Source of the DNA: an uncultured Lachnospiraceae bacterium
Lineage (GTDB): Bacteria; Bacillota; Clostridia; Lachnospirales; Lachnospiraceae
Length of the DNA stretch: 64,000 nucleotides
Direction of reading: 5' to 3'
NCBI GenBank assembly: GCA_947594855.1
Contig: CANQEL010000003.1
Span: forward strand, 39,120 to 103,119
A model generated the notes under the pieces. It made no database searches and was not told the origin of the DNA. It saw only the letters and a list, made by a program, of their open reading frames with translations. The position numbers and the translations under genes were made by a program. Of the stretch, positions 59,366-64,000 are shown in pieces (within the stretch, counting starts at the first letter, position 1; every line of letters begins with the position of its first letter).

Positions 59366-61279
59366 CTATTTCACTATTCCTGACATCTTTTTAAAACCTG
59401 ATTTTCTGATTAGCTTTCTATATGCCGCCAGCTTCTTTGCAGGCACTTTAATCTTAAGTTTTGCGTTTGTTCCTTTAAATGCATTTTTACCTATGCTTTT
59501 TATATAAGCTGATTTTATCACTATTTTTTTAAGTTTCTTTGCTTTTGCAAATGCTTTCTTTGCAACTGAAACCACTTTATATTTATCGCCGTTTATCGTG
59601 ACTGTCTTAGGTATTGTCACCGATGGCTTATTTTTATTTACAAGCCCGATAACGCTTACTTTTTTCTCATTGCCCACTGCTGTAACTTTATATTTCAGAT
59701 TTCCGGCAGTATATACATCGCCGGTAACCGCACCAGGAACGGAATCAGTATATATATTCCCCGGTCCTTTTTGAAGTTTCACAAGCCCTGCAATTGCATT
59801 TGCAATGTCCTCCTGCGCTTTTGCAGCTTCTCCCTCTGTTGCAGATGAATTAGCATATATCTTCTTTGCAGCCTCAACAGCTGCTTTAAGCGTATCCATA
59901 CTGCCGGCTTCATATTCTGCCGGATTGATAAGCTCCGCTTCTTTTATCTTCGCTCCAAGCTCCAGAAGATGCTTGGGAAGCTGTGCAAATTCTGCCGTAA
60001 CGGTAAGATTTTCTGCTCTCATCTTAAACGTATCATCTGAAAGCTCAATCTCTCCTTCACTGCCCGTAACTTTAAACGAGCCCGGAACAAGATAGTAACC
60101 GTCATCTGCCTGCGCCGTCAGTTTAATGCTCTCCCCTGCATAATATGAATTACTGCACTGGTTAATCTTTCCATGCGTGACGCTGCTGTCCGCATTAATC
60201 TGATACCTGGTGAAAAGACTGGTCATAAGCACATCAGCCCAACGTTTTCCATGTTCAATAAGCCCTTTTTCGCTAAGATGAAGATTGTCAGTATGCCTGT
60301 AATCTCCAAGAAGGTCGTCAGTAGTCGGTCCTATAAATATATCATAATTATTGCAAAGCGACCTCTGCGTACCGGTTATCGCTTCCATTTTGGCAGTATT
60401 ATTATAATTAGACCATGCATACGATACCTGCGCAATTACCCACATAAGGTCGTATCCCGCATCCTCTCTTGTCATTGCAATCAGTTTCTTAAATGATGCA
60501 CTATATTCATCCATAGGAGTGGCATCCGTATCCGCCTCACCCTGATGGATAAGAAACGCTCTGTATCCATACCGGCTAAGTCCCGTTATAGCCTGCCTGA
60601 TAGTTTCATAATGTTCCGTGCAAAGTCCTTCTATTGTAGTACCTCCAAATCCTGTAGAACAGAATCCTACTGGTACTCCAAGCCTTTCTGTTAATTCATC
60701 ACCCAATGTAGGCCACGGCGAGCCTCCGCCGTTTCCGGTTGCAAATCCACTGCTATTCGGCTGGCTGTCCTCGCAATGCTGCCATATTCCCTGCGCAGCA
60801 TCATATGCCGACACCGTATCATATGCGGCAGCTGTTTTTGCGCCGCCAAAATTGCATGAGTTGGACTGGCCTCCAGTGATAAACACTTCTCCAACGCCAA
60901 TATGCTCTACGGCTGCATATGCAAGCTCTGAACCGGAATCATCATATACAGCCACTTCAAGCTGATACCATCCGCCTGCAGGAACATTCGGTATTACGCC
61001 GCTGTATTTTGATGTTTCTGACTTACCAAGTTCAGTCCAGTCATTTATTACGCTATCTCCATTTACAATTCTTGCCTTTACATGTCCTTCTCCGTCATAA
61101 ACGGCAGTTACTGATACGTCAGCGGTATTATCATAATTTCTCTGATATATTCCTCTGTCTGTCGGAAAATCAATTTCAATCTGTTCTGCAGCGCATACTT
61201 TATGTGACATCAAAAATATTCCTGCCAGCATAATAAAACATACAAAATATGTACTAATCCTGCTTATATATGTTCTCAT
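59366..61279 (-). CDS. secreted carbohydrate esterase-like protein (DUF303 / sialate-O-acetylesterase-type GGQSN motif) with a C-terminal LRR-type tail
   Basis: Signal peptide. FITGGQSNS motif and HQGEAD. Central Ig-like region. C-terminus IGKNAFKGTNAKLKIKVPAKKLAAYRKLI. Confidence 0.65.
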   Translation of the reverse strand: MRTYISRISTYFVCFIMLAGIFLMSHKVCAAEQIEIDFPTDRGIYQRNYDNTADVSVTAVYDGEGHVKARIVNGDSVINDWTELGKSETSKYSGVIPNVPAGGWYQLEVAVYDDSGSELAYAAVEHIGVGEVFITGGQSNSCNFGGAKTAAAYDTVSAYDAAQGIWQHCEDSQPNSSGFATGNGGGSPWPTLGDELTERLGVPVGFCSTGFGGTTIEGLCTEHYETIRQAITGLSRYGYRAFLIHQGEADTDATPMDEYSASFKKLIAMTREDAGYDLMWVIAQVSYAWSNYNNTAKMEAITGTQRSLCNNYDIFIGPTTDDLLGDYRHTDNLHLSEKGLIEHGKRWADVLMTSLFTRYQINADSSVTHGKINQCSNSYYAGESIKLTAQADDGYYLVPGSFKVTGSEGEIELSDDTFKMRAENLTVTAEFAQLPKHLLELGAKIKEAELINPAEYEAGSMDTLKAAVEAAKKIYANSSATEGEAAKAQEDIANAIAGLVKLQKGPGNIYTDSVPGAVTGDVYTAGNLKYKVTAVGNEKKVSVIGLVNKNKPSVTIPKTVTINGDKYKVVSVAKKAFAKAKKLKKIVIKSAYIKSIGKNAFKGTNAKLKIKVPAKKLAAYRKLIRKSGFKKMSGIVK

Positions 61280-61427: not shown

Positions 61428-61643
61428 ATGGAGTGCAACAAACTTAACGACAAGTTCAGTTATGACCGTCTTGAAGGCATGCCGCTTGGAAGCGCATATG
61501 TCCCCTGGCAGCAGTTCTGCCAGGTTATGGATGCCGGCAAAGGGCTGAGCTACGGCACAATATTTGCCGAACTGGTTTTACCTTTCTATGGCGCCGCCGC
61601 TGCCTGCAGTGATAAAAGGAGGGGTTCATGTGAACAATGCTAA
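61428..61643 (+). CDS. cotJA: spore coat-associated protein CotJA
   Basis: MPLGSAYVPWQQF....GL..GTIF.EL..PF is the characteristic CotJA pattern. Confidence 0.85.
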   Translation: MECNKLNDKFSYDRLEGMPLGSAYVPWQQFCQVMDAGKGLSYGTIFAELVLPFYGAAAACSDKRRGSCEQC

Positions 61644-61881
61644 AAAGAATCTTATGCAGTTTATTAATGAAGTAAGCTTTGCGCTTGATGACGTTTCCCT
61701 GTATCTGGATACACATCCTGATGACAAGGAAGCACTTGATTATTACCAGCAATATCGTATTCAGAGACAACAGTCAATAAAAGAGTATGAAAAATGTTAT
61801 GGCCCGATTACACGTTATGGCGTAGAATCAGACCACAAGTGGACATGGACAGAGGAACCATGGCCATGGGAAGGAGTGTGA
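61630..61881 (+). CDS. cotJB: spore coat protein CotJB
   Basis: GTG start 6 nt after AAAGGAGGGG. LMQFINEVSFALDDVSLYLDTHPDDKEALDYY is the characteristic CotJB pattern. Confidence 0.85.
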   Translation: MNNAKKNLMQFINEVSFALDDVSLYLDTHPDDKEALDYYQQYRIQRQQSIKEYEKCYGPITRYGVESDHKWTWTEEPWPWEGV

Positions 61882-61885
61882 TTGT

Positions 61886-62078
61886 ATGTGGACTTATGAA
61901 AGAAGGCTTCAATATCCGGTTAAAATTACAAGATGCAATCCAAAAATAGCACAGGTAATCATAAGCCAGTACGGAGGACCTGATGGTGAAATGAGCGCCT
62001 CCATGCGTTATCTTTCACAGAGATATTCCATGACTGACAAATCTGTAGCAGGATTACTTACGGATATAGGTACAGAAG
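61886..62078 (+). pseudogene. cotJC: cotJC (manganese-catalase-family spore coat protein), 5' segment only (codons 1-64), interrupted by inserted DNA
   Basis: MWTYERRLQYPVKITRCNPKIAQVIISQYGGPDGEMSASMRYLSQRYSMTDKSVAGLLTDIGTE parallels B. subtilis CotJC up to ...LLTDIGTE. The expected E-F/L-A-H-L-E-M continuation is absent; the frame runs into unrelated sequence and stops at 62191. Confidence 0.8.
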
Positions 62079-62092
62079 CACCGCAAATGTTC

Positions 62093-63499
62093 CTAAGTAT
62101 CTTCTTTACATGCAGTATATGTCCATTTTGCCGAACAGTTTTTCAGATACACATCAATACTGTCATTATCATTTACTACAATTCTGTCTAATATATATCT
62201 GTAAAATTCATCTTCATATTCCACTCCGCAAACAATCTCATCAACAGCATCAGCAATACTTTGCAGACTTTTTATATCTAAAATAACGGCAGATTTTATA
62301 ACCGTAATAAGATTATTCCTTATTTTTACCAGTTCATTTCCTAAACTTTTTACAACAAGGCACATAATATGTACTATATCTTCATTACGTATGCTCCTGC
62401 CCAAGCAGCCTTCCCGGTTCCCATACCGGTCAGTATGTGGGCTGCCATACTGAACAGCATTATTACAACGCCATGCCTTATATGTACTTCCATCTTTACG
62501 TTTCTTATACCGCGCCACATAACTTGAACCACAGCAGCCGCATTTGATTTTTCCGGAAAATGTATAGCGGTTACTGTATTTTGCCCGGCCTCTTTTAGAT
62601 GTGGAACGTTCATCCAGAATACGGTTTGCTTCTTCAAACATTTCACGCGAAATAATAGGCTCATGATGTTCCTTTATAACAATAAATTCTTCCTGTCCCT
62701 TATTATATTTTTTTTCATGCGATAAAAAATCCGGCGTGTAAGTCTTTTTCTGTACCAAATCCCCGCAATATTTCTCGTTTCTTATAATTCTTAAAATAAC
62801 AGTATTATGCCATTTGTTTACTCTCGCAGGCCGTATGCCTTCCTCCTGAAGCTCCCGCGCAATCACATGCGTACCTTTTCTTTCATTAACAAATTTCTGA
62901 AAAATGCGCCGCACAACTGCAGCGCCTTCTTCATTAATATACATTTTACCGCCACGCACATCATAGCCAAGCATACTTCTCCCAAATACCACCCCCTGTT
63001 CCATCTGACGTCTCTGTCCCCACTTTACACGTTCAGAAGTCTTACGGCTTTCTTCCTGGGCAATCGAAGACATTATTGCCAGACGAAGCTCCGCATCACT
63101 ATCCATGGTATTAATATTGTCATTCATGAACACAACAGCCACTCCGTATTTTTTTAAAATACGCGTATAATATATGCTGTCAAGGGTATTTCTTGCAAAA
63201 CGTGATATTTCCTTAGTAATAATCAAATCAAACTCACCATTCACGGCACACTCTATCATATGGTTAAACTCTTTACGTTTCTTCGTATTGGTTCCCGATA
63301 TTCCTTCATCTGCAAATATCCTGTATAATTCCCAGCCATTATTACCCTCTATATATTTTCTGAAAAATCTGCATTGACTTTCAAAAGAGTTTGCCTGGTC
63401 CCTGCTGTCCGTTGAAACGCGGCAGTATGCGGCTACTCTTTTTTTTACTTCAGAATTTCTTTTCTTCTGATTTAAGAGTTCATATTTATTCATTTCCAT
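62093..63499 (-). CDS. large serine recombinase (resolvase/invertase N-terminal domain + recombinase domain + zinc-ribbon region)
   Basis: 468 aa. Catalytic region AAYCRVSTDSRDQ...SQ, then EISRFARN. C-terminal Cys cluster CGCCGSSY...WRC. Confidence 0.9.
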   Translation of the reverse strand: MEMNKYELLNQKKRNSEVKKRVAAYCRVSTDSRDQANSFESQCRFFRKYIEGNNGWELYRIFADEGISGTNTKKRKEFNHMIECAVNGEFDLIITKEISRFARNTLDSIYYTRILKKYGVAVVFMNDNINTMDSDAELRLAIMSSIAQEESRKTSERVKWGQRRQMEQGVVFGRSMLGYDVRGGKMYINEEGAAVVRRIFQKFVNERKGTHVIARELQEEGIRPARVNKWHNTVILRIIRNEKYCGDLVQKKTYTPDFLSHEKKYNKGQEEFIVIKEHHEPIISREMFEEANRILDERSTSKRGRAKYSNRYTFSGKIKCGCCGSSYVARYKKRKDGSTYKAWRCNNAVQYGSPHTDRYGNREGCLGRSIRNEDIVHIMCLVVKSLGNELVKIRNNLITVIKSAVILDIKSLQSIADAVDEIVCGVEYEDEFYRYILDRIVVNDNDSIDVYLKNCSAKWTYTACKEDT

Positions 63500-63692
63500 T
63501 ATTCCCCAAATTATTTTTATTATGTAAAAACAGTTTGTCCATGCAACATTCTCTTTGAAATGTTGTCAATAGTTTTCTTTTTTCCAATGACATAAGTATT
63601 GCTGCCTGGATATCGGTTACCAGTTCCTTACATTCCAATACATTTAATTCTGCGGCAGGACCGCCGGTATATACAAATTCGCGATACTTCAT
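63486..63692 (-). CDS. small hypothetical protein overlapping the recombinase start (candidate accessory or directionality factor)
   Basis: 68 aa from the MKYREFVY start (75 aa from the upstream ATG). 14-nt overlap with the recombinase ATG. I recognise no family. Confidence 0.45.
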   Translation of the reverse strand: MKYREFVYTGGPAAELNVLECKELVTDIQAAILMSLEKRKLLTTFQRECCMDKLFLHNKNNLGNNGNE

Positions 63693-63787
63693 CCCTGTTT
63701 TTCCTCTTTTCATACCATCAATATATGATACAGGGATTGTCCTATATGCCGTATCAGAATCATATTCTGGTACCTGGTAATTTTTAC

Positions 63788-63828
63788 AAAAAAAGAAGTC
63801 CCAAATTGTTTTAATAATTTAGGACTTC
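63788..63828 (-). terminator. rho-independent terminator after the LRR-protein gene
   Basis: GAAGTCCNAAATT/AATTTNGGACTTC 13-bp stem followed on the minus strand by TTTTTTTG. Confidence 0.6.
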
Positions 63829-63850
63829 CGTTATCAATTACTTTATTTTA

Positions 63851-64000
63851 TTATTTTATTACTACTCCGGAACTTACTCCCGCTTTCTTTAACAGTTTCT
63901 GATACACAGCAGTTTTCTTTTTAGGCACTTTTATCTTAGCTTTATCATTTATACCATAGAAAGCTTTGCTTCCTATACCTTTTTTAGTAATTTTAGTTGA
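63851..64000 (-). CDS. C-terminal 49 codons of a BspA-type LRR protein (5' end outside the window)
   Basis: The minus-strand frame is open from the window edge: STKITKKGIGSKAFYGINDKAKIKVPKKKTAVYQKLLKKAGVSSGVVIK*. It is paralogous to the tail of the 59366-61279 protein. Confidence 0.6.
   Translation of the reverse strand, partial: STKITKKGIGSKAFYGINDKAKIKVPKKKTAVYQKLLKKAGVSSGVVIK

Follow-up and report, generated by a model that had tools for sequence, protein, structure and literature searches.

Introduction

To our knowledge, developmental excision of DNA from an interrupted sporulation gene has been demonstrated for few genes, including sigK, spsM, spoVFB, spoVR and gerE, and mostly in Bacilli and Clostridioides difficile. 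The present study concerns a comparable arrangement in a gut Lachnospiraceae bacterium. The stretch of DNA that was analysed (64,000 nt, referred to throughout as the window) ends inside an element inserted by a large serine recombinase (LSR) into cotJC, a gene of the cotJABC operon, and we consider it probable, if well short of certain, that developmental excision restores this gene during sporulation. Described precedents for excision from sporulation genes are skin, SPbeta in spsM, skinCd and gin (PMC5025042, PMC4191935, PMC5595907), and the closest analogues of the window element are gin in gerE and the skin elements. The class of sporulation gene-intervening elements also counts vfbin, vrin and yin among its members.

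The gin element of Bacillus cereus ATCC 10987, which lies in gerE and carries GirC and GirX (PMC5595907), is like the window element small, non-phage and situated in a mother-cell sporulation gene. Both have an LSR, a small accessory protein or open reading frame (ORF), and inverted repeats of the kind found in a serine integrase attachment site (att) of the attP type around a central dinucleotide; in gin the reading frame is restored on excision, and the same is predicted here. They differ in target (gerE versus cotJC), in host (Bacillus versus gut Lachnospiraceae) and in the number of recombinases (three versus one). Moreover, the window LSR lacks a coiled coil, the small ORF resembles no described family, and excision of the window element is a prediction.

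The skin elements in sigK, with the recombinases SpoIVCA in Bacillus subtilis and CD1231 in C. difficile (PMC5025042), share with the window element an LSR gene at the element edge, directly beside one half of the split gene. The directionality factor of C. difficile, CD1234, is a 72-aa protein of no known family (PMC5025042) and thus small like the 68-aa ORF of the window element, which is similar to CD1234 and GirX in size and position. The B. subtilis skin recombinase is under the control of sigmaE and SpoIIID, with which a promoter-like motif in the window would agree. In contrast, skin elements are prophage-like, measure 14.6-48 kb and split a sigma-factor gene, so that their excision gates the developmental programme, whereas the window element splits the gene of a coat enzyme and little regulatory consequence is expected. 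CD1231 also has a coiled-coil motif, and CD1234, a separate gene, is transcribed from a promoter of its own and does not belong to the recombinase operon.

Conjugative or mobilisable transposons of Clostridia that are moved by an LSR, of the Tn5397/TndX and Tn4451/TnpX type, resemble the family to which the window element belongs in having the LSR at the element end. Long relatives (L012 and L097) with accessory modules and the existence of a circular or attP form strengthen this likeness. Unlike these transposons, the window element has no transfer genes, and its family has a single, highly specific target in a sporulation gene.

A split cotJC has been tabulated before: a preprint by Galperin et al. 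(2022) gives an insert of about 8 kb in Laceyella sacchari FBKL4.010 (CP025943.1, 2604060-2612766), with a 5' piece of 231 nt and a 3' piece of 351 nt. The gene is the same and the break point is compatible; the host, however, belongs to the Bacilli, and that case is a single genome in a table, without analysis of recombinase, att site, distribution or selection. In addition, a passage of a 2021 preprint lists cotJC as a target, citing Abe et al. (2013). The supposition of an earlier reading made from the window's letters alone (hereafter the sequence-only reading), that cotJC might be an undescribed target, is therefore mistaken, although neither of the two reported cases has been shown experimentally. 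A literature search found no paper on the cotJC family of gut Clostridia, its att site or LSRs without a coiled coil.

The break in cotJC and the adjoining recombinase gene

The features at the broken end of the cotJ operon are as follows.

61428 to 61643, plus strand: cotJA, intact (PF11007 CotJA, E 1.7e-14)
61630 to 61881, plus strand: cotJB, intact, with a GTG start (PF12652 CotJB, E 1e-32)
61886 to 62070, plus strand: cotJC 5' segment, codons 1-61 and the GG of Gly62 (PF05067 Mn_catalase), which joins the 3' segment in frame
62047 to 62093, no strand: attL, with the host-side arm to 62068, the crossover GG at 62069-62070 and the P' arm TACAGAAGCACCGCAAATGTTCC at 62071-62093
62093 to 63493, minus strand: LSR of 466 aa, or of 468 aa from an alternative start at 63499 (Pfam domains Resolvase, Recombinase and Zn_ribbon_recom)

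The ORF listing and the Pfam matches bear out the description of cotJA and cotJB as intact and of a third ORF that follows the CotJC N-terminus to codon 64 and then runs into foreign sequence. In this 101-aa ORF (61886-62191), the PF05067 match is confined to residues 1-64, equivalent to profile positions 1-65 of 284. Beyond ...LLTDIGTE the frame continues as APQMFLSIFF... into element DNA and reaches a stop at 62191. The break interrupts the conserved ...DIGTEE(L)AH... stretch, immediately ahead of the metal ligands of Mn catalases. Since the truncated ORF, in its exact form and in close variants, occurs on 56 independent contigs, the split is real and no artefact of assembly.

Codon 64 ends at 62077, and 15 nt beyond it, on the minus strand, lies the stop codon of the LSR gene (62093-62095). 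The sequence-only reading had described a serine recombinase of 468 aa ending at this point, which is confirmed; the start at MNKYE gives 466 aa. Its further claim that the coding sequence must overlap the element-side half of the attachment site does not hold: the P' arm of about 23 bp (62071-62093) fills the gap between crossover and stop codon, and the gene merely abuts the site. In many relatives, unlike in the window, the LSR ORF does extend across the attachment site.

The interrupted gene is one expressed in the mother cell, as judged from B. subtilis and C. difficile. The cotJ operon is sigmaE-dependent in B. subtilis, and the cotJ-like operons of C. difficile are sigmaK-dependent (PMC3789822). 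The sequence-only reading had treated cotJ as a mother-cell operon, sigmaE-dependent in B. subtilis; the C. difficile operons call for a correction as to the sigma factor, sigmaK being still one of the mother cell. Given the sigmaK dependence in C. difficile, the relevant stage is probably the late mother cell.

The 3' half of cotJC and the attachment sites

In its 466-aa form the recombinase recurs on eight metagenomic contigs, and the exact 468-aa form had no record in the look-up. Over the final 3.6-5.2 kb of the window, contigs L004, L007 and L008 show 100% identity to it, and L005 differs from it by 1 base in 10 kb. Metagenomes with the element include DRR848701, SRR27728183, ERR10663691 and the ERZ272494xx runs. 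On metagenomic contigs of this kind a second piece of cotJC is present 6.3 kb away, beginning at ...VGTEELAHLEIV, close to the E-(F/L)-A-H-L-E-M continuation at which a 3' segment had been anticipated; in the contigs this piece starts ...ASVGTEELAHLEIV... A 12-bp direct repeat, TAGGTACAGAAG, stands at 62067-62078 and, in window-plus-L004 coordinates, at 68341-68352. The copies are 6,274 bp apart, which is the length of the element, and cotJC ends at about 68768 in the same coordinates.

Joining the two halves at the repeat yields an uninterrupted CotJC of 202 aa, as the sequence-only reading had expected of an in-frame fusion. The predicted junctions read ...GATATAGGTACAGAAGAACTGG... in the rejoined cotJC, ...ACGGATATAGGTACAGAAGAACTGGC... 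in attB and ...CGATGCTTCTGTAGGTACAGAAGCACCGCAAATG... in attP. The joined protein belongs over its full length to the CotJC/Mn-catalase family (PF05067), metal-ligand region included, and is 95% identical from end to end to P0001, an intact 202-aa CotJC of another species with a syntenic cotJABC locus. The empty site is also supplied by relatives whose cotJC is intact and has the same neighbouring genes, so that attB could be derived from them as had been proposed.

The reconstructed attP, aacattttcgatgcttctgta-GG-tacagaagcaccgcaaatgtt, has arms that form 21-nt inverted repeats (19/21 positions identical) around a non-palindromic GG. This is the layout of a serine-integrase attP, which spans about 40-50 bp with inverted arms and a non-palindromic dinucleotide, and the same layout is found in the unintegrated relative L097. 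The element-side arms are kept across the family as GGAACATTTCCGATGCTTCTCTG and TAGAGAAGCCCCTGAAATGTTCC to the left and right of GG. The extent of identity common to attL and attR varies over the 17 loci (14 lineages) in which both halves were captured. Because it shrinks to GG in L034, the crossover can be placed at bases 1 and 2 of the Gly62 codon.

Pseudogenisation of the 3' half was suspected, as gene callers gave only 70 aa for it in L002-L004, and was rejected: tblastn returned one uninterrupted match with 99% identity. The short gene call arises because an upstream ATG is absent.

That the halves might serve as they are, either as polypeptides that reassemble or with the truncated CotJC as a regulator, and that no DNA rearrangement takes place, agrees with the conservation of both halves and with the position of the 5' half as a 101-aa ORF in the cotJ operon. 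We consider this account very improbable. In the window-identical haplotype, the 3' half lacks a start codon where it meets the element, and gene callers give only an internal 70-aa ORF for it; it lies behind 6.3 kb of oppositely oriented genes; the break is just upstream of the catalase metal-ligand motif; and the intact recombinase and att sites would be left unexplained.

Selection on the split gene and age of the insertion

The closest species representative, L076, also has a split cotJC, interrupted by a related element with an LSR 94% identical to that of the window. Between the window lineage and L076, cotJC shows a synonymous divergence (dS) of 0.71 and a non-synonymous divergence (dN) of 0.004, and dN/dS against an intact orthologue is 0.05. 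Within the species, the haplotypes L001 and L004, both of which carry the element, differ at 9-10 positions in cotJC, all of them synonymous. At a dS of about 0.25, neutrality would predict non-synonymous changes in cotJC of the order of a hundred; about two are seen. The split cotJC is under strong purifying selection. Comparison of the element's own genes with L076 gave dN/dS values of 0.096 (LSR, dS 0.28), 0.13 (cargo gene) and 0.39 (small ORF).

The insertion is fixed in the window lineage. Neither an empty site nor a rejoined allele has been recorded for this lineage, the best intact homologue (95% identical) coming from another species, and the exact rejoined CotJC is absent from a collection of 15 billion proteins. 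With respect to L076, the element has a dS of about 0.25 compared with 0.7-1.0 for cotJA, cotJB and cotJC, and is thus about threefold less diverged. Since this is about one third of the host value, the element entered, or moved between, the lineages after the hosts had split, and vertical co-inheritance of element and host is ruled out.

These data bear on a different account, according to which the window element is an ordinary mobile element that uses the conserved cotJC sequence as its site, is excised sporadically or in connection with transfer, and inhabits carriers that tolerate the loss of CotJC, for example by means of a Mn-catalase or coat paralogue. Element genes younger than the host genes are in keeping with it, and C. 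difficile without CotJC-like catalases shows no gross coat defect (PMC11222575). A permanently inactivated gene should decay, however, and the synonymous nature of every within-species difference, together with the dN of 0.004 over a dS of 0.71 to the split L076 gene, shows no such decay. Neither the fixation of the insertion over 56 contigs with no empty site on record nor the want of transfer genes in the window element is what this account would predict.

Nine of the differences between L001 and L004 are packed into cotJC positions 201-369 (about 170 nt), a divergence of about 5% on a background of 1%, and L001 is identical to L076 in the 40 nt just past the core. This suggests that the L001 flank was imported by recombination from a related lineage that is also split.

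Distribution of the family

A scan of one genome per GTDB species recovered 80 loci with LSRs 59-94% identical to the window LSR. Their position relative to cotJC was as follows.

61 of 80 loci: LSR convergent with and adjacent to a cotJC 5' fragment that ends near residue 64
10 of 80 loci: cotJC 5' fragment further downstream of the LSR (tandem or nested insertions)
2 of 80 loci: LSR co-directional with a cotJC 3' fragment
6 of 80 loci: no cotJC near the LSR
1 of 80 loci: contig ends just past the LSR

A cotJC fragment therefore accompanies the LSR in 73 of the 80. Among the hosts are Lachnospiraceae, Oscillospiraceae, Ruminococcaceae and Acutalibacteraceae; cultured carriers include Yeguia hominis NSJ-40, Hespellia stercorisuis DSM 15480 and the Lachnospiraceae bacteria 3-2 and 47-T17. 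The elements measure 3.0-12.4 kb in loci that show both parts of cotJC, and the smallest consist of the small ORF and the LSR alone. For 14 of the 17 loci with both halves, an automated join produced an intact ORF with ...IGTEEL... at the junction. The script put the halves of L043, L044 and L065 together out of register, residues being dropped or gained where they meet and one ORF coming out short, at 179 aa.

The N-terminal regions of the LSRs are 94-98% identical between hosts whose CotJB and CotJC N-terminal sequences are just 43-58% identical, from which it follows that the family is horizontally mobile. The longer members L012 and L097 encode MacB/FtsX and ABC transporters, two-component systems, a sigma-70-family factor and a PemK toxin, and L097 additionally a lysozyme/CHAP hydrolase; from their gene content these long relatives look like conjugative transposons. 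L097 (OJNU01001159.1), a 14.4-kb contig, is the sole exact match to the attP pattern in the JGI metagenomes. It has an intact attP at 1435-1466 beside a 565-aa LSR, a small ORF and no cotJC, the arrangement of a family member apparently caught unintegrated. The closest solved structure, 3g13, is that of a C. difficile conjugative-transposon recombinase, with a catalytic domain about 50% identical.

Mobility of the family, conjugative-transposon-type genes in the long relatives and a free attP form all speak for the ordinary mobile element set out above. Weighed against the state of cotJC in the window lineage, they leave that account, in our view, clearly the less likely one. The element in the window is a reduced, non-conjugative, non-phage member of a large LSR family that uses the cotJC site as attB across gut Clostridia.

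The co-directional sub-family contains fusion ORFs of 697 aa in which the LSR reads through attR into the 3' part of cotJC (...ISGAS/VGTEELNHLEM..., the slash marking the junction). One of them, P0143 (L012 10001-12094), is by itself indexed in 135 blocks, and P0127, P0129, P0130 and others are of the same kind; excision in this sub-family would alter the C-terminus of the recombinase. Other relatives have extra Pfam domains (ABC_tran, thiamin pyrophosphokinase), which may represent read-through into other targets.

In L074, L077 and L079 (Lachnospira/Eubacterium), the cotJC 5' fragment has a further break of its own near residue 28-31: residues 1-31 are encoded at about 17.5 kb and residues 26-68 at about 14.3 kb, with about 3 kb between the breaks. 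This suggests nested or additional insertions in cotJC. In a sister species represented by L098, L099 and L100 (P0059, CotJC 95% identical), whose protein is indexed in 164 blocks of the contig collection, human-gut samples included, the cotJC of L098 (6001-6576) diverges after about residue 175 (...HFQRFGEA/NREDCNK). Downstream there are a 646-aa gene of the EF-G/TetM ribosomal-protection-like type, a 59-aa ORF and a different LSR of 501 aa with a coiled-coil-like region, and the element reaches at least 12508. This may be another target of LSR insertion, close to the 3' end of the gene; the located sequence stops short of the last 26 codons.

The recombinase and its missing segment

The window LSR matches PF00239 (E 2.2e-31), PF07508 (E 2.7e-25) and PF13408 (E 6.6e-08). 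In an alignment of 46 sequences, R25-V26-S27-T28 is invariant, as are the SRFARN residues in the family. The element accordingly encodes its own site-specific recombinase, complete with catalytic serine, Recombinase domain and zinc ribbon. Compared by alignment with most relatives (530-590 aa), however, the window protein is short of about 70-80 aa directly after the zinc ribbon.

In LSRs, the coiled-coil motif arises from the zinc-ribbon domain and governs synapsis and directionality. The segment absent from the window protein is predicted in the relative P0165 to form helices 412-434 and 440-490 (block-mean pLDDT, the model's own per-residue confidence, about 73-86), a modelled two-helix hairpin with the architecture of the LSR coiled-coil motif. 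Mean pLDDT was 48 for the window LSR and 51 for P0165, and only the helical hairpin of P0165 was used; absence of the motif from the window LSR rests on the alignment, the model of that protein being of low confidence. About ten other loci encode LSRs without all or most of this segment, with differing deletion end-points and open frames, and one of them, in L013, shares 97% identity over its N-terminal 385 aa with relatives in which the motif is retained. Loss of the coiled coil has therefore been recurrent. The LSR of L018 is among those with the coiled coil.

Deletion of the coiled coil inactivates phiC31 integrase, and leaves LI integrase about 2% efficient and promiscuous on attP x attB and attL x attR (PMC10754689). 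The phiC31 mutant, the missing hairpin of about 70-80 aa and the reduction of the element to three genes invite the view that the window element is a dead remnant, locked in place by an LSR that lost its activity with its coiled coil, and that LSR and cotJC are on the way to becoming pseudogenes. We regard this as improbable. The LSR is full length, has all its catalytic residues and evolved with a dN/dS of 0.096 over a dS of 0.28; the other motif-less loci, which include L013 with its 97% identity to motif-keeping relatives, retain open frames; the att sites are intact; and cotJC shows no decay.

A motif-less LSR under purifying selection would fit, as a speculation, an excisionase that is independent of a directionality factor. 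Taking this further, one may tentatively imagine that coiled-coil-less LSRs arose repeatedly from cotJC-targeting conjugative-transposon-like integrases and were domesticated as factor-free excisionases timed by mother-cell transcription, that the 68-aa partner perhaps replaces synapsis by the coiled coil, and that the cotJC site is a widespread, unrecognised developmental rearrangement; we would put this chain of events forward as a conjecture more likely wrong than right.

Genes and promoter-like motif of the element

The element has three genes, namely the cargo gene, the small ORF and the LSR gene, all on the strand opposite to cotJC, and its GC content is that of the surroundings. Beyond the LSR gene, the following features lie in the window.

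63486 to 63692, minus strand: conserved small ORF, 68 aa from MKYREF, overlapping the LSR start by 8 nt
63720 to 63749, minus strand: promoter-like motif GCATATA-N15-CATATATT with embedded TAGGACAATC, upstream of the small-ORF/LSR operon
63794 to 63829, minus strand: terminator-like hairpin 3' of the cargo gene, with a stem of 14 bp and a run of T behind it
63851 to 64000, minus strand: 3' end of the cargo gene (gene calls on L001 and L004, and Pfam), the rest of which lies beyond the window

Homologues of the small ORF, with 31-58% identity, are found upstream of the LSR in most related loci; a word-index search gave 3 matches, and Pfam, NCBIfam and PDB returned none, even with a profile of 21 sequences. 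It is a candidate accessory or directionality factor. The cargo gene, which the hairpin at 63794-63829 divides from the recombinase operon, extends to about 68008 in window-plus-L004 coordinates (L004 5486-9643). Its product is a predicted secreted surface protein of 1,385 aa with a signal peptide, a transglutaminase core, immunoglobulin domains and a tail of BspA-type leucine-rich repeats.

A prophage origin, which the precedents named in the sequence-only reading would suggest, is not borne out. None of the three genes is phage-like, the 6.3-kb element has no phage genes, and the longer relatives resemble conjugative transposons; the prophage hypothesis is thus ruled out. Conjugation and mobilisation genes are also absent from the window element, so that it is no integrative and conjugative element either. 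Neither the 50,697 phage records compared with the window LSR nor the phage and plasmid collections contained a relative at or above 58% identity, and the attP pattern was absent from the viral contigs of IMG/VR. The window element is at most a derivative of its conjugative-transposon-like relatives.

The promoter-like motif combines an ATA -35 element with CATATATT as the -10 element. It is the sole match to kmATAww-N13-15-CATAyAhT in 73.5 kb on both strands, where 0.3 would be expected. This sigmaE-type pattern and the consensus of the SpoIIID box come from work on B. subtilis, and the embedded TAGGACAATC resembles a SpoIIID box. Of 58 distinct upstream regions of the family, 43 contain a core of the form G[GT]ACAR-N8-12-CATA, against a background of 0.6%, and a scan of the 80 nt upstream of the small ORF found no sigma-70-type site. 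SigmaE promoters of C. difficile have an ATA -35 element and a -10 element in common with those of sigmaK (PMC3789822). Taken together, the motif is suggestive, and only suggestive, of a mother-cell sigmaE/SpoIIID promoter.

The motif is also an imperfect palindrome (TATATGG...N...CATATA), and could be an operator for a dimeric regulator, instead of or besides a promoter. A candidate anti-Shine-Dalgarno hairpin in the leader of the small ORF was dropped after RNAalifold returned no consensus pairs and Rfam no match.

Proposed course of excision and its weight

Developmental excision is favoured because of the selection on the split cotJC and on the recombinase, the fixation in the lineage and the mother-cell-type motif. 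The anatomy of the locus, its att sites, the in-frame rejoining, the spread of the family and the selection on gene and recombinase can all be read directly from the data, and with these as a frame the element would most likely operate like skin and gin. The small-ORF/LSR operon would be turned on in the sporulating mother cell, where the LSR would recombine attL with attR and remove the 6.3-kb element as a circle. The restored 202-aa cotJC would then be expressed alongside cotJA and cotJB for the spore coat, while the forespore chromosome would retain the element.

Several points weigh against this proposal. Excision in the window organism is something we infer from sequence, as are its specificity for the mother cell and the roles of the small ORF and of coiled-coil loss. 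The window LSR has no coiled coil, and by analogy with phiC31 and LI integrases, which the engineered deletion cripples, it might be expected to work poorly. The low dN/dS of cotJC is in part older than the insertion. No convincing match to a sigmaE-type promoter was seen by eye upstream of the window cotJA, and a positive control is thereby lost. The same motif occurs in conjugative-transposon-like relatives that carry a gene for a sigma-70-family factor of their own, and it may serve that factor rather than sigmaE. Finally, an intact second copy of cotJC, which would have made the split irrelevant, was absent from the 73.5 kb of readable sequence, a span short of the whole genome.

The locus adds a concrete case of cotJC in gut Lachnospiraceae to the known interruptions of sporulation genes, and most of the 80 species-representative genomes from Lachnospiraceae, Oscillospiraceae, Ruminococcaceae and their allies have a related LSR element at this very site in cotJC. 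Should excision be confirmed, gut commensals would commonly rearrange their DNA in a programmed way when they sporulate; if it is not found, the site would be an ordinary integration hot spot. In either case, natural integrases with and without a coiled coil that share one att site and a conserved small partner offer material for studies of directionality and for recombinase tools. The breadth of the family and the absent coiled coil, the latter an unusual feature in an otherwise known kind of element, are the parts most worth attention.

Neighbouring genes

Downstream of cotJC, a GH43 gene is a single ORF of 502 aa in L001 (3137-4645) and two overlapping ORFs of 383 and 99 aa in L004 (3230-4646), the window-identical haplotype; the split in L004 may be a frameshift or an assembly error. 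On the other side of the operon, the host gene beside cotJA (59366-61279, minus strand) encodes a SASA esterase with an InlB B-repeat. Its tail, with BspA-type leucine-rich repeats and a lysine-rich C-terminus, is of the same kind as that of the cargo protein, which suggests that the two have a cell-surface anchoring module in common.

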